Notes: generated by a model from the letters alone, not told the origin. DNA of 64,000 nt from an uncultured Methanosarcinaceae archaeon (GCA_963847185.1 CAWJYV010000008.1:480001-544000); one strand, 5' to 3'; shown: positions 10,014-46,849, counted from the first letter of the stretch. Program-made: numbers and translations.

Positions 10014-10185
10014 ATATCGGGATTTCTAAGAGTTTAGATGAGTTCCTATTATTTGGAATATTTGGAATCCATTCTTAGAACCCATTCTTAATTATCAATC
10101 TTAAATTCCTTAAAAATCATTCTATAATAGCTAACTCTGAAGCAAATATTCCTTGATATTTACTCTTATCTTTGGAAATTAGGAG

Positions 10186-11007
10186 ATGTTATACATGGAA
10201 AATCGAAATATCGGATTTATCGGAGCAGGTAAAATGGGCTCTGCTCTCATGCAGGGAATCATTAAGGCCGGAATTGTTAAACCTGAAAATATTGGCGCAA
10301 GCGATGTATACGAGCCATTTTTAAATGAATTGAAGACAAATCTGGGAATCCGGGTCTCAACTGACAATGCTGTCATTGTCCAGGGATCGGACATTCTTAT
10401 CCTTGCAGTGAAACCTCAGACTCTTGATTCCGTACTTGCAAATCTAAGGGCTTACATAGGTCCTGAAAAACTTGTAATTTCAATTGCCGCAGGCGTACCT
10501 CTCTCTACCTATGAAAATGCCCTTCCAGAAGGCACCAGGGTCATACGTGTAATGCCTAATATAGCAGCCACGGTCTCAGAAGCTGCCTCCGGAATTTCTC
10601 CTGGCAGGAATGTCACTGCTGAAGACTTAAAAACAGCTCTTGAGATCTTTTCTGCAGTTGGCACAGCAGTTCAGGTGCCAGAGTCTCTTATGGATGCCGT
10701 TACAGGGCTTTCAGGAAGCGGGCCTGCTTTTATCTTCCCTGTAATTGAAGCAATGGCTGATGGGGCTGTCCTTGAAGGTATGGACAGGAAGAGTGCTCTT
10801 ACCCTGGCAGCCCAGACTGTACTTGGAGCTGCAAAAATGGCGCTTGAAACAGGCATGCACCCGGGAGAACTAAAAGATATGGTCACTTCTCCTGCCGGGA
10901 CTACAATTCAAGGTATTCATGCTCTTGAGGAAGCCGGAATCAGGGCTGCTTTTATGAATGCAGTTATAAGGGCAAGTGAACGCTCAAAAGAACTCGGGAA
11001 AAAGTAA
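10186..11007 (+). CDS. proC: Pyrroline-5-carboxylate reductase
   Basis: IGFIGAGKMG, RVMPN, SGSGPA, VTSPAGTT. Confidence 0.97.
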   Translation: MLYMENRNIGFIGAGKMGSALMQGIIKAGIVKPENIGASDVYEPFLNELKTNLGIRVSTDNAVIVQGSDILILAVKPQTLDSVLANLRAYIGPEKLVISIAAGVPLSTYENALPEGTRVIRVMPNIAATVSEAASGISPGRNVTAEDLKTALEIFSAVGTAVQVPESLMDAVTGLSGSGPAFIFPVIEAMADGAVLEGMDRKSALTLAAQTVLGAAKMALETGMHPGELKDMVTSPAGTTIQGIHALEEAGIRAAFMNAVIRASERSKELGKK

Positions 11008-11079
11008 ATCTCTTTTATTTTTCCGGTTTTCTTATTTTTCTTTTTGAATCTGGCAGCTAAAAGCGAAAAAAGTTTTAGA

Positions 11080-11769
11080 TTATTTCTTGCTTTCCTTTTT
11101 CAGGCACATAAACCAATCAAGACAGTAAATACTCTCTTCTGTTTCTTCAAGTCTTTCTTTTACTTCTAGCATTGAACGAGGAGGTGAAATTATTACATCA
11201 TCTCCTGGCTGCCAGTTTGCCGGAGTTGATACTTCTTCAGCGTCACTTTTCTGCATGGCGCTAACAAGTCTTTTGATTTCCTGCGTATTCCTTCCATTTT
11301 TGATAGGATAGTAAATTATTGCCCTGATTTTTGACTCCGGATCTATGATAAATGCTGCCCTTACAGTCTGGATTTTTGATTCTTTTCGCTGAACCATTCC
11401 GTACTTCTTCACTACTTCCATTCTCAGGTCAGCAATCACAGGGAACTTGATTTCTATCTTTTTCATCCCTTTGTACTCTATTTTTTCCTCAATTCTCTTA
11501 AGCCATGCAATGTGGGAAAAAATACTGTCTACGGAAAGCCCCAGCAGTTCGGTATTCATTTCTTTAAATTCTTCCTGCATACTTGCAAAGGTCATGAATT
11601 CGGTAGTACATACTGGTGTGAAATCTGCAGGATGGCTGAAAAGGATCACCCATTTCCCTCTATAGTCTTCAGGAAAATTGATTGATCCCTGAGTTGTCAC
11701 AGCTTTAAAAGATGGTGCATCTTCCCCAATCAAGGGTATATGTATCTGCTCATACTCCGTTTCTACCAT
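11080..11769 (-). CDS. Peroxiredoxin (archaeal Prx6/TSA type), paralogue 1
   Basis: FSHPADFTPVCTTE, PANWQPG, CLDWFMC; start moved to MVETEYE by alignment with paralogue 2. Confidence 0.93.
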   Translation of the reverse strand: MVETEYEQIHIPLIGEDAPSFKAVTTQGSINFPEDYRGKWVILFSHPADFTPVCTTEFMTFASMQEEFKEMNTELLGLSVDSIFSHIAWLKRIEEKIEYKGMKKIEIKFPVIADLRMEVVKKYGMVQRKESKIQTVRAAFIIDPESKIRAIIYYPIKNGRNTQEIKRLVSAMQKSDAEEVSTPANWQPGDDVIISPPRSMLEVKERLEETEESIYCLDWFMCLKKESKK

Positions 11770-23861: not shown

Positions 23862-24992
23862 TTATTTTGTACCTTCTACATCTTGTTTTCCATTATCATA
23901 ATTGTTAACTGTGCTTTTTAATTTGTCTGCATAGTCATATATGGAGTTCAAATCATCTATGGGAACTTTCTCTTCATCTTTATCTCCAGTAAACAAGCCT
24001 AGATATTTTTGCTTAGAATTGAAGTACATGCGGCAAATAGGTTTTCTGTTATTATCATCTAATAGCACACCGCAGTAAGATTTCTTATCCCTAATAGCAA
24101 TCCTTTTTAGATTTAAGCTTTCACGAAGAATAGCCTTGATAATATAGTATCCCTGTAGCTCTTCTTCAGTTGTCATAATTCCTTCTGGATTATTATCTGA
24201 AACATCAGATGAAGATGTCTCTTTGCCTTCGTTCAAACCTGAGGGTTGCAAATATTCCGTAGAATTGGAAGAAAGTGAATCCTCAGTCATAGCAAATTTT
24301 AGCCTTTCATTTATCCTATCATTAATGAACTGATTGAGAGCATTTTTTGTAAGAACAGTAAATTTTTCACGGACATTTTGAGTAAAAGGAGAATTAGTTA
24401 CTTTCTTAGTAAAATATTTAACAAACTCTTCAGAAGGAGAATTGATTTCATTAGCAAGTATCTGCTTAATTTCTTTTGTATATTTTAATTCACATGCTAC
24501 ATTTGCCAAATCGTCAATATTGAAGGATTCTTTCTTAAATCTCTTTAATTCATTTATCAGAGGTTCTTTGATGTCTAATAAGTTTATCTCCAAAAATGCT
24601 TTGTCATCCATTTTATTTGGAGCATCAATATCTGTATAAAAACGATATATAATTCCGTTTGTTAAAATTCCAATCTTTGCTTCACTTACAGTAAAATACC
24701 TGAAAAGTTGAGAGGCATATTCTTTATCCAGATCAGCACCAATATTTTTACATTCTATTAATATTATTGGTTTACCATCCTGAAGAATAGCGTAATCAAC
24801 TTTTTCCCCTTTCTTTGTGCCGTAATCAGTTGTAAATTCAGGAACAACTTCAGTAGGATCAAAAACATTGTATCCCAATATGTTTAAAAGAGGCATTACA
24901 AGAGCATTTTTTGTGGCTTCTTCAGTTTTGATACTTTCAGATAACTTTGGAATTTTTGCAGACAATACTTTTATTTGATCTATAAAATCCAT
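23862..24992 (-). CDS. Stand-alone type I restriction HsdR N-terminal-like (PD-D/ExK) protein
   Basis: TEEATKNAL, EVVPEF..D.GTKKGEKVDYAI, ILIECK, QLFRYF, LTNG..YRFY. Confidence 0.8.
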   Translation of the reverse strand: MDFIDQIKVLSAKIPKLSESIKTEEATKNALVMPLLNILGYNVFDPTEVVPEFTTDYGTKKGEKVDYAILQDGKPIILIECKNIGADLDKEYASQLFRYFTVSEAKIGILTNGIIYRFYTDIDAPNKMDDKAFLEINLLDIKEPLINELKRFKKESFNIDDLANVACELKYTKEIKQILANEINSPSEEFVKYFTKKVTNSPFTQNVREKFTVLTKNALNQFINDRINERLKFAMTEDSLSSNSTEYLQPSGLNEGKETSSSDVSDNNPEGIMTTEEELQGYYIIKAILRESLNLKRIAIRDKKSYCGVLLDDNNRKPICRMYFNSKQKYLGLFTGDKDEEKVPIDDLNSIYDYADKLKSTVNNYDNGKQDVEGTK

Positions 24993-29670: not shown

Positions 29671-30386
29671 AAGGGAGCGCAGAGGGTCACGAATACCCCA
29701 ACCTTTAGGTTGGGGATGAAGTGAACCCTCGCCTCTTCGTTTTTCTCTTTAAATCTCTAAATCATTACTTTTTTTGTAAAATGAGGTTTTTTTGGCACCA
29801 TGGCCACAGGTGGTGCCAGCCAGCCTATAGCCTGGATGTGATATGCGTTGGAATTGAACAGTTTTAGCCATGGCTATGGTCAGATAACTTACCATCTCGT
29901 TTTGGTGCCAAAGTATCGATACAATATATTCTACAATAAGCGAATTAAAAAGGATTGCGAGTTGATTCTCAACAATATTTGTATGGAGCAAGGCTACAAG
30001 ACTTCATGCTATGGAAATTGTAGATGATCACGTTCACTTGTTCGTGGAATTTCATCCAAGTAACTCTTTGTCAGAAGTAGTTCAATACTTGAAAGGAGGA
30101 AGTTCTTATAGACTTTTCAAGCTATCATCCTGAATTAAAGAAACGATATTGGGGTGGAAGTCTATGGTCAAGAGGAAAATTCTATCGATCAGTTGGAAAT
30201 GTAACAGCTGACACAATCAAACATTATATTAAGGAATCACAGAAGAAACCGAAAGAAGAGTTCTAAGTCTTCTGAATCAACGAAATTTGGTCAAAGAATA
30301 ATTGAAGATTTCTAACCCCAAAAAACCGGGCGTGCGGCCCGAAGCATACCCCATCCTTTAGGGTGGGGTGGCCGCACGCAATTTGA
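29671..30386. mobile_element. IS200/IS605-family element, tnpA only; ends approximate
   Basis: Related subterminal hairpins CCCCAACCTTTAGGTTGGGG and CCCCATCCTTTAGGGTGGGG flank tnpA; TTAC lies immediately 5'. Confidence 0.8.
29848..30266 (+). pseudogene. tnpA: IS200-type HUH (Y1) transposase with two frameshifts
   Basis: YHLVLVPKYR, DHVHLFV (HUH), LKGGSS, LWSRGKFYRSVG, IKHYI. Confidence 0.88.
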
Positions 30387-30467
30387 TTTTTTTAGATGTC
30401 AGACGAAAGGTTTATATTTTATAAATTACTTGAAGATATGCTCTTAGGCAAAACGTAATAACAAGAT

Positions 30468-30542
30468 GCTCCGATAGTGTAGCTCGGCCAATCATTCAGG
30501 ACTCTCACTCCTGCGACTGGGGTTCAAATCCCCATCGGAGCA
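30468..30542 (+). tRNA. tRNA-Glu(CTC)
   Basis: GCTCCGA/TCGGAGC acceptor stem, CAGGA-CTCTCAC-TCCTG anticodon arm, GGTTCAAATCC T-arm. Confidence 0.97.
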
Positions 30543-30661
30543 CTTTTCTCTTTTATAGTTCTTTTGATGTTACATATTTAGGACTTATATTGTATTCGAA
30601 AATTCATGTATTAAATCCTTAACAGTCAATAGATTTAAATTTAAACCATACTGTTTATTAT

Positions 30662-30790
30662 GAACTCATCCCAGAACTCAAAATTGCTTCTCTGAATCCT
30701 ATATTCCGAATAACAAATCGAGTTCAAATCACGAAAAACAATTCTAAAAATTTAATTATTTGATAATAAAATTGGTTTTGGGATAAGCTC
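30662..30790 (+). mobile_element. MITE family A, copy 1 (about 130 bp)
   Basis: TIR GAACTCATCCCAGAAC / GTTTTGGGATAAGCTC, TAT on both flanks; similar to 37777-37908 and 43399-43611. Confidence 0.75.
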
Positions 30791-30798
30791 TATATTTG

Positions 30799-32079
30799 GG
30801 GGTTCTCAAATTAGAATTTTGATTAAAAATTTATCCTTTTTTTCACTAACCTGGTCTGGAACGTACTTCTTTTTTTCAATTGCGATAGCTTTAAATATCA
30901 TAAAAATTGTCGCTTTCATGTGTAACAAAATATGATATATAAAGGAGTCCTCTTTGAGGACTCCCTCGAAAACTATCTGGGCAGAGAAAGTATCTCAATT
31001 TGCCAATTCCTGTACTTCCTCTGCATTGACGATATTTCAAAGCACGTAGAACGTGCTTTTTATACCAACAAGAGTTGGCACTTTAAGTATAGTGTTTCTT
31101 CTATGATAAAACTCTTTGTTGTGAAATGTTTCAGGAAACTTTCATATGATAAAACCATTTCTTCCCTAACAGAGGAAGAAGCTATTCTATCTTTTTTTGA
31201 TGAAAATGGTCAAATAAAACTTCCTTCAGGTGGAACCCTTCATCATTTTGTGAAATACAGGCTTGGAGAAGAAGGAATCAATGAGATTATGATGTTGCTA
31301 GGTGAAAAAATCCTTAAACTTTCATCTGAAAAGGAAGCCAAGATTGATTCTACCCCACTTGAAGCTTCAAGATACGATAAACACGCTGACTACAATCCAC
31401 ATTACGAGTGTAAAATGGATAAATCCCACATTACAATGGTTGGTACCTACCCTGTTATTATGACTTATACAAATGGTCTTGCATCTGATTCTCCAGAACT
31501 TATCAAACATATAGAAGCTTTGCAAAAAATGAATGCGAATATAGAATCATATTCTGCAGACGGAGGTTATGATTCATTTCTGAATCATGCGTATATATGG
31601 TTTCATCTTAAAGCAAAACCAGTTATTTCTTACGCATCAAATGCCGTAATCAATAAAGAAGGAAAAATGAAACGAATAGATCACTGGGTCAATAAAATGT
31701 GGAAAATAGGAGGAGATATTTAACGCAAAAATGGAAGACAAACTCGAATTTCTCTACAAAAACGGAAGGATGTTACAGGTTGGAATGTATCTGAGAAACC
31801 AGAATATCAACGATGATTCATTCAAAGAACTATATAAAAAGAGAGCTGAATGTGAAAAGATACATGGCCATATTAAGGATACAGTAAAATTCGACGTCAG
31901 AAAAGTAAGAAAGCAGAGTAGAAAATTATACTCACTCCTGAACTTCGTTGCAGTATCAGCTATTGGTGCTTACAGAATTGCAAAACAAAGTCCAAAACAG
32001 AAATTCATTTGGAGGATATTTTTAAAGAAATGATTGTCAAATTAGATCAGGGAGTTTTCAAACCTAATTTGAGATCCTC
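30799..32079 (+). mobile_element. Insertion sequence (DDE transposase; family not assigned)
   Basis: 16-bp imperfect TIRs GGGGTTCTCAAATTAG / CTAATTTGAGATCCTC; 5-bp TSD ATTTG at 30794-98 and 32080-84. Confidence 0.88.
30932..32025 (+). pseudogene. DDE transposase with frameshifts near 31720 and 31950
   Basis: IDSTPLEA, ADGGYDS, YKKRAECEKIHGHIK; corrected C-terminus reads YQLLVLTELQN...FGGYF*. Confidence 0.85.
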
Positions 32080-32228: not shown

Positions 32229-32777
32229 TTAATGAAAATCGTCTTTATGAAATATGCTCTCTGTCTTGATCCCATAAGCTGTAAACATGTTTTCAATCCA
32301 TATTGTAGCTATTTTGGAAAAATTAACGCCAAAATCATGGGTTATTATCAGCTTATAATGGCCTTCGCAATCTGTGTAATCGATAGTATCGATCCAGCTA
32401 GTTATCTTGAGATTGACGATCAGCCCATCTATAACTTCTTTTAGACTACATTCCTCAAGAGACTTCTGAAAGTATAACTCTATTGTATATTCTATGGTTT
32501 TATTCCGGATAAAAAGCTCACTTAGCAGCTCAATATCAGCAGTTTCTATTAGCAATTTAAATGTAGTTTTTTCGATAATAACTAATGATTTTGCCTTTTT
32601 AAGGCGCATCCAATATTTTTCTTCTAGGGATAATGCAGGTCCCTTTTTTGAGCTGTTTTCCAGACATTCCAGTGCAAATTCTAAGGTTTTTTGCTGTGTT
32701 TCATATTTTTCGGCTTGTTTTTTTAATAATTCCCAATGTTTCTGCGAGATTGTAGTGGAAATTCGGTGTGTTTTCAA
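32229..32777 (-). CDS. Putative ribbon-helix-helix regulator with a C-terminal ligand-binding-like domain, divergent from the protease
   Basis: N-terminal beta-alpha-alpha pattern HRISTTISQKHWELLKK...QQKTLEFALECL; C-terminus may be frameshifted (alternative frame KTIFIKIFKN*). Confidence 0.55.
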   Translation of the reverse strand: MKTHRISTTISQKHWELLKKQAEKYETQQKTLEFALECLENSSKKGPALSLEEKYWMRLKKAKSLVIIEKTTFKLLIETADIELLSELFIRNKTIEYTIELYFQKSLEECSLKEVIDGLIVNLKITSWIDTIDYTDCEGHYKLIITHDFGVNFSKIATIWIENMFTAYGIKTESIFHKDDFH

Positions 32778-33050
32778 AATCGTTCACCCCAAATTTCAGA
32801 CTTTTTTGAATTCATACAATTTCTCGAAATCGGGCAAATGATCATATGCTTAAAACCTGCAATTATTTACACATATTTCTACGGTGTTGGACGTATTTGA
32901 TTTGAGTACAACCACAAGTAAGAATTAGTTCACTAATTATTTTTCCATCCGCACATCAAACGAATATGCGCATTCTGTACATATGTTATCTGGATAGCAT
33001 ATTTCTACCTGCGTATTTTATTTTAGCTTTGTTCACAGTAAAAAAATGCT

Positions 33051-35239
33051 ATGAGACTTGCAGATCAAAGTGAAATATTGGATGTAATCATGAAATCAAC
33101 AGAGATTATGGAGAACATTGAAGGAGATGCAAATATTTGCATTGCAGTCCTTGACGGTCCGGTTGACCTAAATCATCCTTGTTTCAACAAAACCAAGATA
33201 ACAAAAATAGAAACTTTAGTTTCAGACGTTACTGAGAGAGGACCAAGTGCATACCACGGAACTCATGTTGCTAGCTTAATCTTTGGCCAGCGTAGCAGTT
33301 CCATTCATGGTATTGCTCCTGGCTGTCGTGGACTTGTAATTCCTGTTTTTGCAGATGGGCCTGATGATTCGATTACCCCCTGTTCTCAGATTGATCTCGC
33401 TCACGCCATCACACAAGCCGTTGAACACGGAGCCCATGTAATAAACATCAGTGGTGGGGAACTGGTTTCCTCTAGTGAACCTCATCCTCTACTTGACAAG
33501 GCTGTTCGTCTTTGCGCCGAAAACGGTGTTTTAATTGTTGCAGCTGTGGGAAATGACGGATGCCAGTGCCTCCATGTGCCAGCCGCCATTTCTTCGACCC
33601 TTGCAGTAGGGGCAATGGATGCCCGGGGAATACCACTTGACTTTAGTAATTGGGGGAAGCCGTATCAGATTAATGGTATTCTTGCACTTGGTGAAAAATT
33701 ATTGGGAGCTGTGCCTGGTGGGGATGTCACCATCAGAAGCGGCACCAGCTTTGCCACTCCTATTGTTTCTGGTATTGTTGCTTTGCTGTTGAGCATCCAG
33801 AGACAAAGGGGAAACAAACCTGATCCCCACGCTGTGAGGGATGCCATTCTCCAGAGCGCTTACCCTTGTATCCCTTCCGAAAGTTTAGATTGTTCTCGTT
33901 ATCTAAGAGGCCGTCTCAAAGTTGGAGGGGCATATGATCTTGTCACAAGAAAACAACAAGCTGTGACTTACAGTACTAATTCAGTACAACAAATTCAAGA
34001 GAGTGTGAACGTAAGACTGGTGGAATCTTCCAAAAAACTGCCTGTTCTTGGCGTGCAGAATGCGGAATTCACAACACTTAATCCGGAGATAGCAGCGCCC
34101 TCTACTCTGAGTTCCACTTTGGACGCAATGAAAGCTCTGGAAAATCCTGATTCTATTGAGTCAAAATCAATAGATATAGAGAAGAACGAACAAACGAAAA
34201 ACCAGACACCGGAGGATAATATGACCGAAAATATAGAAGGAACATGTGGTTGTCCAGAAGGAAAGAAGATTGAAGACAAAATTCACGAGCCAACAACTGA
34301 TAAAAGTAAGCTCCAGATCCATGCATCTGATGTACAGGCGACAGAATTTATGATTCCAAACCAAGAGTTTGCTACATCATCTGTCATGCCCTCGGAGGTC
34401 CATCCAGCTGCATGTTCTGCGAATGGACAACAATCCCTCGTATACGCCCTTGGTACACTAGGTTACGATTTTGGGAGCGAAGCACGGCGAGATGCTTTTG
34501 TCCAGAGCATGAAGGATGATAGGCCGAACCCAGACGACCCTGTGCAATTGCTGACCCATTTAGAAAATAATCCTGAGTACGCGGAGTCACTCATATGGAC
34601 CCTCAATATTGAGGAAACCCCTATTTATGCAATCCGCCCTATGGGCAGTTTTGCCTCGAAGACTTACGAGCAGCTACGCGAATTTCTTGATGCACAGCAG
34701 GCAAAAAAAGTAGAAAAAGTTTCGATTCCAGGGGTAATTGTAGGAAAAGTAAAACTCCTTTCAGGCCAGGTGGTACCGGTCATTATCCCAGAACTGCGGG
34801 GAATGTACTGCTGGCGTGAAGAGGCTGTGGTAAAAACTGCAGTGCGTGCAGTGTTAGGTTCGGAGTTCAAAAGTGCCGATGATGATACACTGAAAGCAGT
34901 ACATGCAGGTGCTCGCAACTTCTTAATGCGGGTGTATTACGAGTTCATGAACCTAGGCCGGACTCCACAGGAGCGTGCCATGAACTTTGCCGGAACAAAT
35001 GCATTCCAAGTTGTGGACGTCTTTGAGCAGGCGGTTAAAGAGAGACTGACGCTAGATAGTATTATACGGAAAAAAGCGCGATCTGTAGGCCAGATTCGGA
35101 ATGTTGGGATGTGAAGCTGAAGTTTTTCGATCCGGCCAATATACAACAGGTCGCCAGAAAGGTGTATCGCTTTACTATCGATGTAAGTGACGTGGTGCCC
35201 GTTTCAGTTGGAGAGATACGGTCTTGGTCGGTTTACTAA
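33051..35239 (+). CDS. PatA/PatG-family cyanobactin-type maturation protease (S8 domain + linker + PatG_D/PatG_C DUF); 1-nt frameshift at about 35064
   Basis: Triad IAVLDGPVD / HGTHVASLIFGQ / SGTSFATPIVSG; GNDGCQCLHVPAA, FSNWG; DUF motifs VYALGTLGYDFGSEARRD, LIWTLN, RAMNFAGTNAFQ; shifted frame continues CRPDSECWDVKLKFFDP...YRFTIDVSDVVPVSVGEIRSW to TAA 35237-39. Confidence 0.9.
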
Positions 35240-35258
35240 GCCGGATAAATCTAATTAC

Positions 35259-35293
35259 GTGCCACCAAAGGGGTTCATCGCCTTTGGTGGCAC
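35259..35293 (+). other. Perfect 13-bp stem-loop between the protease and precursor genes
   Basis: GTGCCACCAAAGG-9 nt-CCTTTGGTGGCAC. Confidence 0.8.
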
Positions 35294-35430
35294 TCACGAA
35301 TTTACAACTATTGTCACTATGATGAGGATGGTGATAATAAGCAGAAACAGTTTGTTTCAAACCGTCACCTGTGTGGTGACAGAACAGCTCCCCTTACGGG
35401 AAAGAACAAAAAGAGATAGGAGGAATTATT

Positions 35431-35640
35431 ATGAAATTAAAAACAAGCAAAACCTGTTGTGAGAAAGTCAGTACAGCGAAAATAGAGTCTGGAATCTGTC
35501 AATCTGGTCTTTGTGAAATGGGTTGCAGTCTAATTCCAAATGCCACTGCAAAGAATATCTGCCTAGCAGCATGTCCAGTAGCAGGCAGTTTAGCAAGCAA
35601 GATTCCGGTGGTAGGCGGGATATTGGGTGGCCTGTTATAA
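35431..35640 (+). CDS. Cys-rich RiPP precursor peptide 1 (69 aa)
   Basis: GGAGG RBS; paralogous to 35653-35865; AKIESGICQS then GLCEMGC..CLAAC and Gly-rich tail; leader motif KQAKPVVR lies in the +1 frame between compensating indels. Confidence 0.8.
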   Translation: MKLKTSKTCCEKVSTAKIESGICQSGLCEMGCSLIPNATAKNICLAACPVAGSLASKIPVVGGILGGLL

Positions 35641-35652
35641 GGAGGAAATGTT

Positions 35653-35865
35653 ATGAGAGTACCAAAACAAGCAAAACCTGTCATGAGAAATGCCCGTATG
35701 GCAAAGATTGAGTCTGGAATCTGTCAATCTGGTCTTTGCGAAACGGGTTGTAATCTAATTCCAAATGCCACTGCAAAGAATATCTGCCTAGCGGCATGTC
35801 CAGTGGCAGGCGGTTTAACAGGTCTGATTCCGGGAGTAGGCGGGATAATAAGTCGCCTGTTTTAA
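35653..35865 (+). CDS. Cys-rich RiPP precursor peptide 2 (70 aa)
   Basis: AAGGAGG RBS; MRVPKQAKPVMR...GICQS-GLCETGCNLIPNATAKNICLAACPVAGGLTGLIPGVGGIISRLF. Confidence 0.88.
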   Translation: MRVPKQAKPVMRNARMAKIESGICQSGLCETGCNLIPNATAKNICLAACPVAGGLTGLIPGVGGIISRLF

Positions 35866-36141
35866 TAGCGAGATAGATAGTGCAACAAGAATCGAAGCCA
35901 AAATAGGTCAAATTGAACATTTCCAAGTGAGTGTGGCCTAATTAACAATACCATAAGAAATGCCACATAGCATTTAATGTCGAATGCTTGTGTAGGCAGT
36001 CTTTTTGGATGTAATGCGTTGGGACTTATTGCCAGAACCTTCAAAAAACAACGCGATTGGATAGCTGCAATCAGTATGGTTGCAAGCTATCCCTTATAAT
36101 TTCTAGTAGGTATTAAAAACCAGAAATAAGAAGGAAATGTT

Positions 36142-36305
36142 ATGATAGTATCAATGCAGGCAAAACCTGTTATGAGAATGTCAGAAGCAAGAATCGAAGC
36201 AGGAATCAGTCAGTTTAGCATTGCGAAATAGGTTTAACTTAATAAAATGCTGCAGGAAAGGCTGTTTGCCTGGCCGCATACTGCGGTTTTGGAAAGGTTC
36301 TCTGA
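36142..36305 (+). pseudogene. Degenerate precursor paralogue 3
   Basis: AAGAAGG RBS; MIVSMQAKPVMRMSEARIEAGISQF, then frameshifted CEIG.NL..NAAGKAVCLAAYCGFGKVL*. Confidence 0.72.
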
Positions 36306-36545
36306 TATTGCTGCAGTACAGACAATTTGTGGATTAATATCTATGTAATCTGGGGCATTTGTTCGTGTTTTTTTAACACACATCTCCCCCACTGATTATT
36401 TGGCAAAAATAATGAAATTGACTTCTTAGAGTTGATGTATAGTTTCGATCGTTCCGGTTGGAAGCTATCTAAATACTCATTTTTTGAGTAGCCCAAAATT
36501 GGGTGCCTCAGAGTAGCCAGAATAAGAACCAAGGAGGAAATTGTT

Positions 36546-36701
36546 ATGAGAACACCGATGCAGGCAAAACCTGTTGTGAGAAATGTCAGTAAGGCAAAAA
36601 TCAAGGTAGGAGTCTGCCAGTCTTCTGATTGCCACGAGAGTTGCAGCACAAAGACAGGGTTTCAGAAGAATTTATGCTTGGAGATGTGCGACTCCGCTTA
36701 A
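36546..36701 (+). CDS. Cys-rich RiPP precursor peptide 4 (51 aa, not in ORF track)
   Basis: AAGGAGG RBS; MRTPMQAKPVVRNVSKAKIKVGVCQS-SDCHESCSTKTGFQKNLCLEMCDSA*. Confidence 0.85.
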   Translation: MRTPMQAKPVVRNVSKAKIKVGVCQSSDCHESCSTKTGFQKNLCLEMCDSA

Positions 36702-36903
36702 AGATTTTTATGCTGATCAGTTAAAAGATTAACAGAATATGACTACACTTACGGCTTATTCTACCGCAAGCAAAGTAAGACATATTTCATGCTTTTAGTA
36801 TAATGTCCGCTGCTAAATTATTTACAAATACGGTGAAATTTAATGTTAGACGATTGCTAAATAATATAAATATGGTAATAATATATTTTCAAGAGGGGAA
36901 GTT

Positions 36904-37733
36904 ATGGGAAAAGGTATGGCGTTAACAATCGGACTGAATGCCGTCGACCGAAGCATTATGCGGGATGGTCGGGAGAATTGGCTGCATGCGAATTCGATGC
37001 AGTCGATTATGCAGAGATTGCGAAGTCTAGAAATTTTGAGGTTAAGACCCTCCTTACCAAAGAAGCTACCAGGACAAATGTAATCGATGAAATCTCCAAG
37101 GCAGCAAACTCGTCGAAGGCCGGAGATATGTTCATGTTGAGTTATTCTGGTCATGGCGGCTGGTTGACGGATTTGAATGACGACGAAGAGGATGGAATGG
37201 ACGAGACCATGTGTTTGTATGATGGTCATTTAATCGATGACGAATTAAACGCTCTATTTGCAAAGTTCGGTGAAGGAGTTCGAGTTCTATATTCGGACAG
37301 CTGTCACAGTGACGGTTAAAAAATGGTGTTTTTAGAAACGATTGAAAATAAGCCGGAAAACCGAGGAAAAAAATCCTCAAGCTCGTACCGTTACATGCCT
37401 AATGATATTTGATCCGGTTTATATGGCAAACCAGGCTTTTTATAACAAGATATTACAAGACGAAAGCTTATGAATGCCGGGGACGATATCAAGGCTACTT
37501 TGTTGCACATATCGGGATGCCAAGATAACCAGTTTTCGAGAGATGGGATGAGGAACGGCCTTTTTACTTCCAAACTATTATACGTGTGGAAACACGAAGG
37601 TTGCGATAAAAATTACAGACAGTTTTACGATGGAATCTGTAAACGAATGCCATCTACGCAAACTCCAAATTTTTATATCACAGGTAAGATCGATCCAAAA
37701 TTCGAGAAGCAACAAGTCTTTAAGTTTGATTAG
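36904..37733 (+). pseudogene. Metacaspase (peptidase C14) gene with several frameshifts
   Basis: MGKGMALTIGLNAVD(P)KHYAGWSGELAACEFDA, SYSGHGG (His), DETMCLYD, SDSCHS (Cys), ISGCQDNQ.S.DG..NGLFT, QTPN. Confidence 0.85.
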
Positions 37734-39624: not shown

Positions 39625-41175
39625 ATGGAACAGTTCTCTTTTATTGCCTCTATGCCTGACAGATCCGGAGCGTTACACAGGGCAGCTGAGATTATCACTC
39701 GATATGAGGGGAACATTAACAGGATACAGTATGACCGCAGAATAGATCGACACATCGTATTTTTTGAAGTGACTGCTGTTTCAAAGGCTTATGAAAAGAT
39801 TCGCGAGGAACTGGGGAAAATCGGTTATCTTCAGACTTCTCTGCAGCCTGTAGCTTTTCTGAAATTCCATGTCTATCTTCCTAACTGTCCTGGAGCTTTG
39901 TTTGATTTTTTGAACTATATTACTTCTTCAGAGGCAAATATCACTTTTCTTGATTTTGATGATCGAGGGCAGCATCCAGAACGGCTCTTAGTAGGTCTCA
40001 ATATAGAGAACACCGGCCTGATTGATTCACTACTGAATCAGCTAAAGTCCAGGTACAGGCTCGAGATTATCGAGTACGATACAACAGGGGAAAAACTTGA
40101 TGATACGGTGTTTTATCTTCGGTTGGCTCAGAAATTGAGGTCTTTTATTGGGAGTGCTGAAGACGTTTTCTTGATGAGATTCCTGCATGATATTAACCAT
40201 ATTGCCCAGGAACTCTCAAATCTTCAAAAAGATCCGATTGAAGTTTTTGAAAATATCCTTAAGGTCGGAGATTGCTTAAACCGGACATCGGGAGAGAATT
40301 TTTACGCCGATGTACAGAGAATTCGAATAAAGGACGATATCGAGCTCTTTTGTTTTCAGCCTCCCTGCGGAGGTAATATCTATCTCTTTGATACTCCTTC
40401 AGAAAGGGTTATGATTGACACAGGTTATGGAATCTATTTTCAAGATATTGTGAATATGTTCCAGCACTATGGGCTTGGAGATCTAAGGCGGCTTAAAAGA
40501 ATTTACATTACTCACGCCGACGCCGATCACTGTGGTGCTTCAGGTTTTTTCCCTGTCCCCTCTTATCTTAATCGTGAAACTCTTCTGGTTATGCGGGAAA
40601 CCAGCAGATCTTACGGGTCCAGTAACCAGGGATGTATTCTGGAAGAAGTTTATACGAAAATAATTAATCTTTTTTCCAGGTTTACTCCTCCCTCGGACAT
40701 AATACTCTTTCCTGAAATCTACTCCTCTAATGAATTAATTGAAAAAAGGGGTGCATTTCCTGTAATTGACAGATTCCAGATCGCAAACCTGAATTTTGAG
40801 GCTCTTGAAGGTCTGGGAGGGCATATGCATGGCGAAGTTTTCTATTTATGTCCTGAGGAGGGGCTAATCTTCCCTGAAGATGCATTAATCAATTTCAAGA
40901 GCTTGACCTCTGATAGGACAGAGTATAACGTTCTGGCTGATTACCTCATGACATCTGTAAATGTTGACAGCAAGCTTGCGCGGGAAGAGAGAAATGCTCT
41001 CCTTTCTCTCATTTCTGACATTGATGTAAAACTTATAGGAAAAAATAGAAAATGCTTGATTTGTTGTGGGCATGGCTCTATATCAGTACTCGAAAACGGA
41101 AAACTTGTCGAATACAAAAGTTCCGAAAGATATATTGCAGGACATAAACCTTCTGCTTTTCAAGACAAGTTATAA
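39625..41175 (+). CDS. ACT-domain + metallo-beta-lactamase-fold protein
   Basis: Two ACT starts (PDRSGAL, PNCPGAL); IDTGYG, THADADH, GGHMHG, CGHG. Confidence 0.85.
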   Translation: MEQFSFIASMPDRSGALHRAAEIITRYEGNINRIQYDRRIDRHIVFFEVTAVSKAYEKIREELGKIGYLQTSLQPVAFLKFHVYLPNCPGALFDFLNYITSSEANITFLDFDDRGQHPERLLVGLNIENTGLIDSLLNQLKSRYRLEIIEYDTTGEKLDDTVFYLRLAQKLRSFIGSAEDVFLMRFLHDINHIAQELSNLQKDPIEVFENILKVGDCLNRTSGENFYADVQRIRIKDDIELFCFQPPCGGNIYLFDTPSERVMIDTGYGIYFQDIVNMFQHYGLGDLRRLKRIYITHADADHCGASGFFPVPSYLNRETLLVMRETSRSYGSSNQGCILEEVYTKIINLFSRFTPPSDIILFPEIYSSNELIEKRGAFPVIDRFQIANLNFEALEGLGGHMHGEVFYLCPEEGLIFPEDALINFKSLTSDRTEYNVLADYLMTSVNVDSKLAREERNALLSLISDIDVKLIGKNRKCLICCGHGSISVLENGKLVEYKSSERYIAGHKPSAFQDKL

Positions 41176-41394
41176 AGAAAGTTGAAGACAATTGGGATTT
41201 GAGCAAATGAGTTTAGAGCAAATAGCTTGGAATTGATAAAAATAAATAATCCTGCAGATTTAATCAAGCCATTTTTTAATGATTTCCGCAAAATCCATCT
41301 TAGTTTTGATCGGGGGTAAATCCGATCTTTGTCTTATACTCAAACTGTATTTCAAATATTAGCAAATGCTATTAGCCATTTGTAAACAGGAGAT

Positions 41395-41712
41395 TTATTC
41401 TCCTCCTCTACCTCCGAAACCCTGGCTGCTTCCTCCAGATGATGAGCCACCTCCTCCAGACCCGCCAGTTCCTGTTCCACCGAAACCCTGACTTTTTCCT
41501 CCTCCCCCCTGGCCAGTTTGTTTACTGGCTGATTCCATCGCCTGCATAAGAGAGTCAACTGAGTCATATTCTCTATCAGGGATCATTTGCAGGGATTCAA
41601 TTATGTCGCTTGAAGCTTTTTGTTTTCTAACCTGCTCCATAATCTGGTTTTTTGTCGCTGGAAACTGCATGTTCCTAAACATTTCCTGCATCATGCTTGG
41701 ACTTGCCCTCAT
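41395..41712 (-). CDS. DUF2795-domain protein with Gly-rich tail
   Basis: MQFPATKNQI, IPDREYDS. Confidence 0.75.
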   Translation of the reverse strand: MRASPSMMQEMFRNMQFPATKNQIMEQVRKQKASSDIIESLQMIPDREYDSVDSLMQAMESASKQTGQGGGGKSQGFGGTGTGGSGGGGSSSGGSSQGFGGRGGE

Positions 41713-41959
41713 ATCTTTTCACCTTCCCCATGTTTTGTGGATTTACCCCCATTCCGACATTTATATTAATCATATAAATAAATACTCAATTATATATTTT
41801 AGAACCATTTCTACTGATGCCTAAAATTCTTCTATTAATTTACGCTATTTTATTGGATAAAGCTTGTAAAATTCTATATTGGAAGTTAAAACAGAAATTC
41901 CCAAAAAGAGATCCACAAACGTATATTGGAAAGTTTAAGTAAACATTTTTAAAAAGAAA

Positions 41960-42044
41960 TGCGAGGGGTGCGATTCGAACGCACGAATTCCTACGAAAAT
42001 GGGTCCTAAGCCCATCGCCTTTGACCTGGCTGGGCAACCCTCGC
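41960..42044 (-). tRNA. tRNA-Leu(TAG)
   Basis: Reverse complement GCGAGGG...ATGGG-CTTAGGA-CCCAT, long variable arm, GTTCGAATC. Confidence 0.97.
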
Positions 42045-42113
42045 ACTAATGTTCTGATTTTGTGTAAAACTAGTACAAAAAAAGAAGAAATTTAGTTTTT
42101 ATTCAACATTAAA

Positions 42114-42185
42114 TGCGCCGACCGGGATTCGAACCCGGGTTTTGGGCTTGGAAGGCCCAAGTCATAGCCACTAGACCATCAACGC
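42114..42185 (-). tRNA. tRNA-Gly(TCC)
   Basis: Reverse complement GCGTTGA...GGGC-CTTCCAA-GCCC...GGTTCGAATCC. Confidence 0.97.
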
Positions 42186-42762
42186 AAACTGCAACACATC
42201 TAGAGGTATTTGTTATATATATTATTTTCGCTTGATCTTTTTTGTTTTTATTTTCCCCTAATTTCCTTCAGGTTTTGCTTTGGACGCATAAGTTTATTCT
42301 TTCTTCCCAGAAGGAAATAAATTATTTGATCTTAAGAATATTTTCTGTTGAGGTCTTTCCCTTATTTTTCTACTACTTCTTCCAGGCTATATATGTCCCA
42401 AATTTTTTTATTATAACCAGTTTTCATAAAAATTATAAATAATGGAGTAATTATATGGAAAAAAGGAATATTTGAGAACGCATTTAATTATTAGGGAACT
42501 CATTGTATCAAAAATATCTTACATATAGGTATTAATTTAAGTCAGTCTATTTTTCGTCCAAAAATAGTTATTTGAGATCAAATTTTTCGCTTAATTTGTA
42601 ACTCTGTCATATATTTTGCAGGACTAAGTAGAGTTTGAGACCAATACTGAATCCTGCGTACCCTAAGGTAAGGCACCCAAAGGCAAGAAATAGATAACTT
42701 TTACATTATATTAAAGTTTTCTAAGTCTTGCCTCTTAATTCAAAATTAAGAGGTATTTTAAT

Positions 42763-43294
42763 ATGAAACCAAGAACTTCTGGATTAATAACTTCCTTGCT
42801 GATAGTGCTAATCACCTTAACGGGTCTAGCTGCAGCAAGTGCAGGTGGGGAGATTATGCAAAATGTGATCAGAGTATCAGCATTACTCTCAACTCAGGAA
42901 GCAATAATCCTGGTAGTGAAAGTAAATCTATCCATGAACTGAAAGCAGTGTCTCTTTCTATAATAATGAGTGGGAAGACTAAAATGAGTGTTTCCGGTTC
43001 TAAAATCACTTTTAGTACATCAACCACTACCATTCCTTCTGTTAAAGCCCCCTAATTCAGGCAACCTCAAAACTCTGGTACAAGAAAAGTAAAAACTCTA
43101 AAGAGGTTTTCAAGATTGTGGCATATAAAGAAGGGACGAAAGTCAGCAAAGTAGAAGCCAAAGGCACTTTTAGTGTCCGTCAGTCTGGATATTTCCGAGT
43201 AATTGGACACCATCTTCTCGTTTCTCCTCCTAATCATAAATCTTCTGAAGTTGAAGATATAACCTATAGTGATTGGAAATACGTTTCAGTTTAA
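42763..43294 (+). pseudogene. Decayed gene for a secreted protein of unknown family
   Basis: GAGGT RBS; signal-peptide-like MKPRTSGLITSLLIVLITLTGLAAASAGG; coding-like fragments ending ITYSDWKYVSV*. Confidence 0.4.
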
Positions 43295-43398
43295 TCTTCT
43301 AAGATAGTAAATACTTTGTTAACGATGATAGTTAATTGTAGTAAGTTTTGTTGCTTTGTTCAATTTGAGTATTGAATGAAGCATATTATTTTATCAAT

Positions 43399-43611
43399 GA
43401 GCTAACCCAAAACTCAAAATTAGGTCGTGTACGCGAGTTATTGATCAATTCCGAAAAGCGAGTATATCTTCCGTATTTGAGAGAAATGTGGAGAGATTTA
43501 TATGCTTACAGTTTTAATAACCCATGCCCAAGACGCAATATGTTTCAAATTATAAAAATTGTTCTGAAGTTCTTTTTAATGAGACTCTAAAGCTGGTTTC
43601 GAGATGAGCTT
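43399..43611 (+). mobile_element. MITE family A, copy 3, interrupted by a family B MITE
   Basis: GAGCTAACCCAAAACTCAAAATT ... GGTTTCGAGATGAGCT. Confidence 0.6.
43423..43535 (+). mobile_element. MITE family B, copy 1
   Basis: Closely similar to 56319-56433 (GGTCGTGTAC..GAGTT.TTGATCAATTCCGAAAA). Confidence 0.75.
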
Positions 43612-44289
43612 AATGTCTGTTTTTTAGCTTTTCTCGAACAAGCCAATTAAAGAAATACGGTTATAAGAAATGAACAAAATTACTCACTGAAAATAGCGAA
43701 ATGCCTCATTCATATTGTCAACCTTCGTTAAATCTAACCTATATATTCATTATATATATTTCAGAGTAAAATCTTTTGAATCTGCTTTTAACAACATCAT
43801 TTTTTCGATCAATTAAAGTCAATTTTTTCCGTAAAATTTTTTGTTTTTTATTACTTTTTTCAATAAAAAATATTCTTTTTTGTATATCTCTCTCTAAATA
43901 TTATTACGTCAATCCACAAAGAATACTCGAGTGCTCACTGGAGCAATAATTTTCATCCTTGAACACATAACTAAAGTTATTATTTTTATTTGTTAACTAC
44001 TATTTTTCACTGATAGGCTTTCTTTTACGGATTTACTTTTATTTGGGCCAGGGCATGAATAATATAATCTTATATAGGGCTAGACATAAGTTCTCAAAAC
44101 AGGTTTCTCCTCTTATGCCGCCCTGGCTTCAAAGGGGACCCAACGAAAACGTATGGAGATCTTGTAGAAATGGAACCTTTCATTCTGGTATTTGGAATCA
44201 GGCTCTTTACTTTTGCATATCTCCTTTTGTTATTGAGAACACATTCAAAGCTTAACAAAAAGTTAATGTAAGGATCAAATTATACGGTT

Positions 44290-44676
44290 TAAACGAATTA
44301 AAAAGAAAATATTGCTCTCGCTTACTTTTATCGCTGGTGTGTTCTTTACAGGGCTATATGGCGTTAAGTCTTCGGAAGGTTAGTTATCTTACGGTATCTG
44401 AACTCATGTCCGATCCTCAGGCCCGTCTCGGGCAAAATGTAAATGTAGTGGGAGTTGTAGAATACGAAAGCCTCGAGGTGACTCCCGATATGAAGGTTTT
44501 TGAACTAACGGACGAAAATAATGGGAATTTCAAAGTTCGTGCAGAGTATAACAGGCAGCCTTCCCTCCAACCTTGTAGAAGGAAAAAAGGTGAGTATCGG
44601 CGGAACTATGGTTTCTGGATCTACGTTTGAGGCAAATAAAATTATTACTCGATGTCCATCCAAGTATACGGAGTAG
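44290..44676 (+). pseudogene. ccmE: Cytochrome c maturation heme chaperone CcmE (CxxxY type), disrupted
   Basis: TM segment, YLTVSEL, VNVVGVV, FELTD, Y.GSLPSNLVEG, FEANKIITRCPSKY; 4-bp GTTA duplication at 44379-86, +1 near 44550, no clear start. Confidence 0.8.
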
Positions 44677-45539: not shown

Positions 45540-45670
45540 TTCACTCAGCTCTTCCTGAATAATGAATTGGTATTTTGCTCAATCTATTATATATATTCAT
45601 AATATCTCTTAGTTTTTATTTAACTTCTCAATTTATTCAACTTTTGCCACTAAATTTATCAGGTGTATTC

Positions 45671-46849
45671 ATGCGAGTATATGATAGTCCGGTTCTTAAA
45701 GTAAATGCCAGTACAGAAAACGAAAAAATGGTGCTAGATGCTGAGGGTCCCCTTTCCCAGCTTGCAAAACCTTTCCTGAAGCGTATAAATAGTATTTTTG
45801 CGGAAGAAAAACCTATTTCAATGGACGAAGATGAGATTATTTTCTCTACGTGGATCCCGCCTATTCCTGGACCTGTCTTCAGCAGGGTAATAAGTGCTGA
45901 GATCTCAGCTATCAGGAAGAAAAGAGTGCCTGATCAATTCTCAATAGGAATTACTGCCCGCTGTCCCAACCGCTGTATTCATTGTGGAGCAGCTGATATC
46001 AAGCCGGAAAAAGAACTGACTCTTGACGAAATCAGCGATGCTGTGGACCAGAGCCTGGATCTTGGAGCCTATCTTGTTTCCTTTGACGGTGGGGAAACTA
46101 TGCTTCGAAATGACCTTGTTGAGATGGTTGCCAGAGTGGATAAATCAAGGGCAATTGCAACCTGTTTCACTTCGGGTTTCAAGCTTTCTGAGGAGAGGGC
46201 AAAAGAGCTTAAGGCTGCAGGTCTCTATGCTGCAAGAATCAGTATTGACAGTCCTTTTGAAGTTGAACATGACCGTGTTAGGGGACGAGATGGCGCATAC
46301 AAGGATGCAGTCGCTGGAATAAGGAATGCTCGTAGCGCAGGAATCCTTACTGACATGTTTGTGGTAGTTTCTCCTCACAACATCGATAATCTTGAAGAAT
46401 TCTACACTCTCGCAGCTGATCTCAATATGCATGAACTTTCTATTTATGAAATCATTGCAGTTGGCCGCTGGCTTGATCATGAGGATGAAGTAATCAGCGA
46501 AAAAGATGTATCAAGGCTTGAGAAGTTCCAGAAAGCCATGAATAGTAAACCTGAAGGACCCAGAGTTACCGCTTTCCCATACTTCATGGGGCCTTCCCTT
46601 TTCGGTTGCTTTGCGGGCAGACGCTGGATGCACGTTGCTTCAGACGGGGAAGTCATGCCCTGTGCCTACACTCCATTATCCTTTGGAAATATCTGTGATG
46701 AATCTCTGGAGACTATCTGGAAGCGCATGGGTAAGCATAATGCCTTCAAAAAAGACACTCCCTATTGTATGATGCGTAACCCTGATTTCCGGAAGGAGTA
46801 CATCCATACGATCCCTCAGGGCGCAAAAATTCCTTATAGGCTTAAGTAA
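45671..46849 (+). CDS. Radical SAM / SPASM-domain protein
   Basis: CPNRCIHC motif, GCFAG, DGEVMPC; start MRVYD after AGGTG RBS. Confidence 0.9.
   Translation: MRVYDSPVLKVNASTENEKMVLDAEGPLSQLAKPFLKRINSIFAEEKPISMDEDEIIFSTWIPPIPGPVFSRVISAEISAIRKKRVPDQFSIGITARCPNRCIHCGAADIKPEKELTLDEISDAVDQSLDLGAYLVSFDGGETMLRNDLVEMVARVDKSRAIATCFTSGFKLSEERAKELKAAGLYAARISIDSPFEVEHDRVRGRDGAYKDAVAGIRNARSAGILTDMFVVVSPHNIDNLEEFYTLAADLNMHELSIYEIIAVGRWLDHEDEVISEKDVSRLEKFQKAMNSKPEGPRVTAFPYFMGPSLFGCFAGRRWMHVASDGEVMPCAYTPLSFGNICDESLETIWKRMGKHNAFKKDTPYCMMRNPDFRKEYIHTIPQGAKIPYRLK

Follow-up and report, generated by a model that had tools for sequence, protein, structure and literature searches.

The cyanobactin pathways are the closest described counterparts of the system considered here. 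The patellamide-type pathway consists of the PatA protease, the PatD heterocyclase, the PatE precursor and the PatG oxidase/macrocyclase, and besides muscoride the linear cyanobactins include aeruginosamide and viridisamide. In the available text of the sources, PatA-like enzymes are described as cutting their precursors after the sequence G(L/V)E(A/P)S (PMC10885120, PMC4282754), and the muscoride pathway as employing a YcaO-like enzyme, MusD (PMC10885120). In this paper, we have analysed a stretch of 64,000 nucleotides (nt) of DNA from an uncultured Methanosarcinaceae archaeon (GCA_963847185.1 CAWJYV010000008.1:480001-544000), hereafter the window, which carries between positions 32229 and 37733 a gene for a PatA-type protease, a downstream array of short genes for Cys-rich peptides, a metacaspase gene and, in divergent orientation, a gene for a protein of 182 amino acids (aa). 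An original prediction, made from the sequence of the window, had read these genes together as a minimal, protease-only pathway of a methanogen. We consider it likely that the protease and the peptide genes form a cassette of a PatA-type leader protease and its cognate linear-peptide substrates, and this cassette is more interesting at the level of the family than as the eroded copy found in the window.

The protease gene occupies 33051..35239 on the plus strand, and its product was characterized by Pfam, TIGR03895 and comparison with structures in the PDB as a maturation protease of the cyanobactin family, laid out as an S8 catalytic domain, a linker, PatG_D and PatG_C. Its coding sequence is split over two frames, an open reading frame (ORF) at 33051-35114 (687 aa) and a 42-aa ORF at 35111-35239. 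The former matches the Pfam families Peptidase_S8 (7.7e-31), PatG_D (7.8e-20) and PatG_C (7.3e-15), and the latter encodes the remaining last third of PatG_C (profile positions 79-115 of 115). Against TIGR03895, the NCBIfam model of the PatA/PatG family of cyanobactin maturation proteases, for which the curated cut-off is 421.05 bits, the protein scores 603.8 bits over profile positions 1-551 of 606, the remainder of the profile being coded in the shifted frame. The hidden Markov model search proposed with the original prediction has thus found both PatG_D and PatG_C, and together with Peptidase_S8 and a TIGR03895 score above the cut-off it bears out the claim of a PatA-like protease.

Comparison with solved structures makes the assignment more specific. 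The catalytic domain scores 323.8 bits against PagA (4H6W) and 308-312 bits against PatA (4H6V, 3ZXX and 3ZXY), in alignments that run unbroken from residue 21 onward, and the PatG and PagG macrocyclase domains give 160-166 bits and align from residue 47 only. The C-terminal (DUF) region scores 153 bits against the structure of the PatG DUF (4UVQ). By alignment with PagA and PatA, the catalytic triad is Asp35, His69 and Ser233; across 58 aligned relatives the Ser column is invariant, and the Asp and the His columns are each conserved in at least 90%. The spacing between Asp35 and His69 is short and the alignment to PatA and PagA is continuous there, so that the macrocyclase insertion is absent, as had been predicted. 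On these alignments the protease belongs to the PatA subtype and not to the PatG macrocyclases, because it scores far nearer to PatA and PagA and has no macrocyclase insert.

Alignment to seven relatives places the break in the protease gene not at 35111 but at the A6 run at 35070-35075, in or beside which one base is missing, and an A7 in place of the A6 would restore both the frame and exactly the length of the relatives. The loss may be a true mutation; an error in the homopolymer or slippage is also possible, because the base is lost at an A6 run and A7 restores frame and length. Comparison with the relatives also makes 33090 the likelier start of the gene, and no clear Shine-Dalgarno (SD) motif was seen upstream of either 33051 or 33090.

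Four short ORFs beginning at 35431, 35653, 36142 and 36546 follow the protease gene on the same strand. The prediction that they are homologous and each preceded by its own SD stands, in that they are mutually homologous and a GGAGG-like motif (GAAGG at 36142) lies a few bases upstream of each ATG; it does not stand as a count of working genes, since the first and third are damaged and only those at 35653 and 36546 are intact. At E 0.1, none of the four matches any family of Pfam or NCBIfam. Gene 2 (35653..35865, plus strand, 70 aa), read from its translation and from peptide alignments, has a leader of residues 1-26 ending in G-I-C-Q-S, and its four-Cys core bears a Gly-rich hydrophobic tail; with its ortholog in the related locus L021 it shares 86% identity, at a ratio of nonsynonymous to synonymous substitution rates (dN/dS) of 0.44. 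Gene 4 (36546..36701, plus strand, 51 aa), which was read in the same way, has a leader ending in G-V-C-Q-S and a short core of the four-Cys C-x3-C...C-x3-C type. Gene 1 (35431..35640, plus strand, 69 aa) encodes a core of that type followed by a Gly-rich hydrophobic tail; its DNA alignment to the L021 ortholog reveals two deletions, of 2 nt and 1 nt, which shift nine leader codons out of the reading frame, as a result of which the conserved leader residues P4, Q6, P9 and R12 are lost, and its product is probably not processable. Gene 3 (36142..36231, plus strand) has decayed to a remnant of 29 aa, with several indels and a TAG that ends it prematurely. Between genes 2 and 3, at 35886..35910 on the plus strand, lies the leader-coding remnant of a vestigial peptide gene, which was recognized through the direct-repeat family D4 and is 80% identical to the leader part of gene 3. 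The cassette copy in this genome is partly decayed, because the protease gene carries a frameshift, only two of the four peptide genes have escaped damage and the neighbouring metacaspase is dead; the flanking housekeeping genes, unlike the cassette, are intact. A scan for sigma-70 promoters and terminators gave nothing above shuffled sequences, and such a bacterial model does not apply to an archaeon. A search for sequencing runs listed three metagenomes, with small shares (0.06-0.09), and no RNA run.

Alignments of the peptides define a leader of about 26 residues, which opens with M-[KR]-x-P-x-Q-A-K-P-V-x-R, continues with about ten variable residues and ends in G-[IV]-x-[QP]-S. The cores that follow this conserved leader are unrelated in sequence, range from 23 to 52 residues, and fall into at least five to six Cys frameworks. 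A motif x-[ILVM]-x-x-S occurs at residues ~22-29 in 55 of the 59 distinct peptides. At the site so predicted, 43 peptides have Gly at P5, 48 have Ile or Val at P4, and 45 have Gln or Pro at P2. The Gly at P5, the aliphatic P4 and the Ser at P1 make the site resemble the G(L/V)E(A/P)S after which PatA-like enzymes cut. The number of Cys provides an independent check that would support the predicted site: an odd number of Cys is found in eight of the 59 precursors taken whole, and past the site all 55 cores have an even one (29 with four, 23 with six, two with eight, and a truncated one with two), as compared with 17 even and 27 odd among the small ORFs of the window that have at least three Cys. 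The commonest framework is C-x3-C ... C-x3-C on two predicted helices, in some cases with a Gly-rich hydrophobic tail, and an AlphaFold2 model of peptide 2 (28 alignment rows) has two helices over the four core Cys with a predicted local distance difference test (pLDDT) score of ~70, the mean being 58.3. In all six equal-length ortholog pairs dN/dS lies between 0.15 and 0.55, and within a class the core is constrained at least as much as the leader; judged by these ratios, the peptide genes are real genes under purifying selection. As a separate observation, two precursors (L029 5986-6204 and L042 4941-5240) carry a tandem double four-Cys core behind one leader, giving eight Cys, and these are the sole cases with more than one core per precursor.

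The leader also points to cyanobactin precursors. When bacterial examples and the precursor from the canonical cluster of Gloeothece PCC 7822 are included in the alignment, P4 and R12 do not vary at all, at least 90% of the sequences retain Q6 and P9, and the motif common to both groups is L-P-x-Q-x-x-P-V-x-R. Searched singly, seven of 25 peptides match the cyanobactin precursor family TIGR03678 weakly (best E 0.025) and six of 25 match NF042906 (best E 0.0057), the matches being limited to leader residues ~3-16; TIGR04446 is matched weakly by a peptide of Gloeocapsa. Over the precursor-family matches listed, the best E values run from 0.0057 to 0.059, and the scores are 13.7-16.2 bits, set against cut-offs of 35-75 bits. 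We therefore read the likeness as suggesting homology of the leader to cyanobactin precursor leaders and not as membership of TIGR03678, NF042906 or TIGR04446. A leader profile found chance matches only (E ~1) among PDB sequences, and a leader scan of viral contigs found no relative. A prediction of the complex from the L021 protease alignment and the peptide alignment scored 0.18 against a mark of 0.32, and is used neither for nor against an interaction.

The protease and the peptides are strictly co-located and co-occur in archaea. TIGR03895 is matched in nine of the family's 177 genomes, among them the window's own (G000). Each of the nine belongs to the window's genus (eight of its 58 other genomes), and the match is absent from the 118 genomes of 15 other genera of the family as well as from 400 further sampled genomes of the phylum. 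A peptide profile, A1, built from 25 peptides matches precisely the same nine of the 59 genus genomes, on the contig of the protease, and none of the 50 others. Immediately 3' of the protease, peptide genes stand in all eight related genus loci, with one to nine genes in each. Outside the shared synteny, the locus L029 of a metagenome-assembled genome (MAG) from Methanosarcinales combines a protease with two peptide genes. Furthermore, 11 metagenome loci were recovered through the leader; the protease or fragments of it are present in all eight that have at least 700 nt of upstream sequence, three being too short. It had been proposed that the homologous proteases should be followed by similar peptides elsewhere, and they are so in the eight genus loci, in the eight assessable metagenome loci and in L029. 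In public annotation, a Methanosarcina barkeri ortholog is named 'PatA/PatG family cyanobactin maturation protease' by NCBI, and the 22 database peptides bear no label but 'hypothetical protein'. In a side observation, the largest array (L025 7938-4172, in genome G149) comprises nine peptide genes with at least four Cys frameworks and a truncated tenth, together with an IS4-like transposase, a +1 insertion in PatG_C of the protease and an additional copy of the 182-aa gene, which is broken; its indels may be errors, because the assembly is a MAG.

The system is not restricted to methanogens: the cassette also occurs in cyanobacteria and an Acidobacteriota MAG, and a form of it with cores free of Cys is present in Streptomyces. 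A tblastn search of plasmids with the protease gave 12 records, of which seven regions were inspected: in one, from Gloeothece, the protease belongs to a canonical cluster together with PatG, PatB, PatC and a heterocyclase, and the remaining six are protease-only with short downstream genes. In the cyanobacterial and Acidobacteriota loci, short genes ~70-300 nt 3' of the protease encode the leader motif, a site of the G-[IV]-x-P-S type and a Cys-rich core. Such a gene is unannotated in Gloeocapsa PCC 7428 (L047, ORF 10864-11169) and in two strains of Acaryochloris marina (L049, ORF 9963-10151, and the same in L053), is listed as 'hypothetical protein' in Nostoc cf. commune SO-36 (L050, 8414-8605), and lies directly downstream of the protease in the Acidobacteriota MAG (L032, 1144-1344), where the first 13 residues of the peptide fit the archaeal leader. 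The two Streptomyces plasmids (L051 and L052) have four and two tandem 'hypothetical' peptide genes. In their products a longer leader, with G-V-E-A-[ND] at its end, precedes an amphipathic core of 13-19 residues that has no Cys.

The bacterial proteases share 42-51% identity over the stretches that match, and that of Nostoc SO-36 reaches 56% over 55% of the query. In a FastTree phylogeny of the top 120 matches and six locus proteins, rooted on a long Streptomyces branch, the archaeal proteases make up one clade of 42 rows with SH-like support of 99, next to which stands a group that is mostly cyanobacterial. Methanosarcinales probably acquired the cassette in one event from bacteria, or the transfer was the reverse; the tree fixes neither the root nor the direction. 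Three further observations were made in these regions. In the two Streptomyces plasmids (L051 5950-10161 and L052 4962-9079) the conserved cassette includes a SARP/BTAD-type regulator and a PatA-related S8 protease of ~830-850 aa, and beside the 2-4 tandem peptide genes also a conserved protein of 95-106 aa. A gene with a CAP domain lies immediately 5' of the protease in Gloeocapsa (L047 8296-8886) and Nostoc (L050 6255-6500), and the Nostoc protease in L050 lacks the C-terminal half of the catalytic domain.

Several enzymes of the known pathways are missing around the archaeal cassette. The window's own genome has a single TIGR03895 match, and so no second gene for a PatG-type protease/macrocyclase; its other S8 genes match in the catalytic part only, at 36-38% identity. 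No YcaO (PF02624) was found in the window, the sole match of the genome being on another contig (C7), which agrees with the prediction that none lies nearby. Likewise as predicted, none of the 59 distinct peptides has an [AS]YD follower of the AYDG or SYD type. A search of the genome for PatB (TIGR04220) gave no match; the controls were also silent, which makes that search uninformative. Across the loci there is no conserved signal peptide, exporter, immunity gene, thiol oxidase or modifying enzyme. A protease-only pathway of PatA type with an array of cognate precursors, which is the core of the original prediction, is thus upheld by the PatG_D and PatG_C domains, by the co-location, and by the absence of a PatG, a follower and a local YcaO.

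These features suggest a two-component cassette of cyanobactin ancestry, in which a cytoplasmic PatA-type subtilase would serve a downstream array of precursors. The protease would recognize the leader and cut after the conserved Ser, as family membership, the likeness of the motif and the Cys parity suggest. The linear core would thereby be freed, and its four, six or eight Cys would pair, with neither cyclization nor heterocyclization; linear, leader-cleaved products with paired Cys are expected because there is no PatG, no local or PatD-type YcaO and no follower. The peptides might then act outside the cell or at the membrane, in competition or signalling. More tentatively, and with slightly less than an even chance of being right, PatA-type proteases may define a hitherto unrecognized class of protease-only peptide cassettes that spans both domains and, by removal of a cyanobactin-like leader, yields unmodified or merely disulfide-bonded linear products, namely hypervariable Cys-framework mini-proteins in Methanosarcinales, cyanobacteria and Acidobacteriota, and short amphipathic peptides in Streptomyces.

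A number of points weigh against this proposal of a leader protease with cognate substrates. The site motif x-[ILVM]-x-x-S is our own pattern, by which Ser stands at P1 in 55 of 55 peptides by construction, and it is missing in four of the 59. Every match of a peptide to a precursor family is far under the curated cut-off, and the AlphaFold2 confidence for the peptide is low. The lack of a conserved exporter, immunity gene or thiol oxidase does not favour secreted disulfide-bonded products, and stable disulfides are not expected in the reducing habitat of a methanogen. Finally, the protease gene is broken or partial in four of the nine genomes (G000, G149, G152 and G153), in two of which (G152 and G153) only fragments are found; this may indicate weak selection, although three of these four assemblies are draft and MAG-like.

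Two genes that the original prediction counted as parts of the system do not belong to the cassette. The divergent 182-aa gene (32229..32777, minus strand), which had been taken for a regulator, has no Pfam or NCBIfam match and is present in 31 of the 59 genus genomes, protease-less ones included, with its syntenic position unchanged. Three genomes without the protease share the gene order PAN ATPase, 182-aa gene, 2.3-2.6 kb of unrelated ORFs, ARH, DUF123 and MBL. Because genomes without the protease carry it at the same position, the 182-aa gene is a resident flank gene and is not specific to the cassette. A feature search placed it at 0.96 to AF_0136_C clusters; as a lead only, it is possibly a ribbon-helix-helix or AF_0136_C-type archaeal protein. 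In a three-frame reading the metacaspase (Peptidase C14, 36904..37733, plus strand) proves to be a pseudogene: its frame shifts once, near 36950-36980, and stop codons lie in frame at 37317, 37410 and 37443; Pfam C14 (PF00656) matches two caspase pieces and there is no intact single-frame domain. As a pseudogene without a match in any of the eight related loci, the metacaspase is cargo of the variable island and no part of the cassette.

The site of the cassette is a hypervariable spot that extends from the resident 182-aa gene to the ARH-DUF123-MBL genes. The stretch between the 182-aa gene and ARH is hypervariable also in L033 (9886-12521), L034 (10498-12752) and L035 (10445-12802), and the interval from the arrays to ARH varies in L020, L021, L022 and L045, the cargo differing by genome. 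This cargo includes DUF6765 proteins, metallophosphoesterases, a membrane protein of 180-197 aa, ORFs without known function and, in the window, the dead metacaspase. The membrane protein, which lies 3' of the arrays in L020 and L021, was considered as an immunity gene and rejected, being found at two loci only. Upstream of the cassette, the interval that separates the 182-aa gene from the PAN ATPase is less than 1 kb long in the relatives, and in the window it contains mobile-element debris (29848-32033): two fragments of IS200-type Y1 transposases (29848-30133), a tRNA gene (30468-30542) and two ORFs (30932-31723 and 31731-32033) over which an IS5/IS1182-like transposase is split. Further off, a 376-aa protein with type I restriction HSDR_N domains is encoded at 23862-24992 (minus strand), and two tRNA genes lie at 41960-42185 (minus strand) inside an ORF-poor stretch (41175-44652). 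A radical-SAM enzyme with a SPASM domain is encoded at 45575-46849 on the plus strand, 9 kb downstream of the peptide genes. It was considered as a peptide-modifying enzyme and rejected, since all 59 genomes carry it as a core gene, as compared with nine of 59 for the peptides; its identity is 81-97% in 55 of the 59, the rest being fragments or paralogs, and each genome has paralogs of it at ~40% identity.

Among the alternatives to a working cassette in the window, one comes close to an even chance, namely that the copy is a non-functional relic in which the protease lacks the last ~58 residues of PatG_C, the peptide genes are drifting and nothing is matured. The one-base frameshift relative to seven relatives, the scrambled leader of gene 1, the truncation of gene 3, the extra remnant at 35886-35910, the adjacent metacaspase with its three nonsense codons and one frameshift, the nearby insertion sequence (IS) fragments, and the fragmentary proteases retained in G152 and G153 are all in keeping with such decay. 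The force of the frameshift is reduced, however, by its position at the A6 run, where an error or slippage could account for it; the catalytic domain and PatG_D are intact, and loss of the PatG_C end need not abolish cleavage. Genes 2 and 4 are also intact, and 86% identity to an ortholog at a dN/dS of 0.44 likewise counts against a relic.

It is unlikely, though less implausible than the last alternative below, that the peptides are intracellular metal-binding or redox-buffering molecules, with their Cys as ligands activated by removal of the leader, and not secreted antagonists. The host is strictly anaerobic and its surroundings are reducing, no conserved signal peptide, exporter or immunity gene is found, and cores with four or eight Cys would suit one or two tetrahedral sites. 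In addition, the available text of PMC13692751 presents Cys-rich proteins of methanogens as modified and not oxidized. On the other hand, 23 of the 55 cores have six Cys, a number that suits three disulfides better than it does Cys4 sites; the frameworks of paralogs within one array differ strongly, as they do in families of toxin and defence peptides; some cores bear Gly-rich hydrophobic tails; the Streptomyces relatives have amphipathic cores free of Cys; and the Cys-rich type occurs in oxygenic cyanobacteria as well. It is least likely of all that the short ORFs are no substrates of the protease and merely adjoin it in a mobile unit, being autonomous (membrane toxins or regulators, for example) or handled by an enzyme elsewhere such as the radical-SAM/SPASM protein 9 kb downstream, enzymes of which kind are described in the available text of PMC13692751 as crosslinking Cys-rich substrates in methanogens; that gene is present in all 59 genomes and the peptides in only nine, peptides and protease co-occur in perfect adjacency in archaea and bacteria, and the leader has its N-terminal motif and a predicted PatA-like site in common with cyanobactin precursors.

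If PatA-type proteases do define such a class of protease-only cassettes, the Methanosarcina peptides would be the first archaeal peptides of the cyanobactin family, and candidate archaeocins or signals, with arrays of up to nine different cores per genome. To our knowledge, the peptides that methanogens secrete are almost entirely undescribed. In full-text searches of the literature we found no cyanobactin-family product from Archaea and no description of a PatA-only, Cys-rich or archaeal cassette, a prior mention in subscription papers or supplements being possible; the available text of PMC4282754, PMC10885120, PMC4603692, bioRxiv 10.64898/2026.07.27.741052 and PMC13692751 does not describe the cassette. 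The cassette is minimal, comprising one enzyme and genetically encoded substrates, and it would widen the role of the cyanobactin protease family from the biosynthesis of macrocycles to a general leader-removal module for linear Cys-framework peptides. Public annotation misses dozens of short genes beside 'PatA/PatG family' proteases, even in complete cyanobacterial plasmids, and the conserved leader provides a simple handle for mining them.

With the cyanobactin pathways the cassette has in common the PatA-type S8 protease with PatG_D and PatG_C, the leader motif and the hypervariable cores, and its predicted five-residue site is like theirs. It differs from them in having no second, PatG-type protease, no local heterocyclase and no follower; in precursors with one core each (two in L029 and L042), which are arranged in multi-gene arrays of up to nine; in cores of 23-52 residues with 4-8 Cys, as opposed to macrocycles of 6-20 residues; and in its archaeal host. 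Linear cyanobactins such as muscoride resemble the predicted products in being linear and non-macrocyclic and in their origin from the PatA family; these compounds, however, are very short, heterocyclized, prenylated or methylated, and processed at the C-terminus too, whereas the cassette contains no such enzyme and no C-terminal recognition. The stand-alone PatA cassettes of bacterial plasmids have the same architecture, mostly with a single peptide gene where the archaea have arrays. Further possible analogues are the leader-cleaved unmodified bacteriocins, conotoxin-like superfamilies and the plant alpha-hairpinins, the last of which have the C-x3-C...C-x3-C pattern. Like these, the archaeal precursors combine a conserved pro-region, a hypervariable mature part and even Cys counts; unlike them, they are served by another protease family, with neither a double-glycine leader nor a C39 transporter, and they have no sequence relationship to any of the three.

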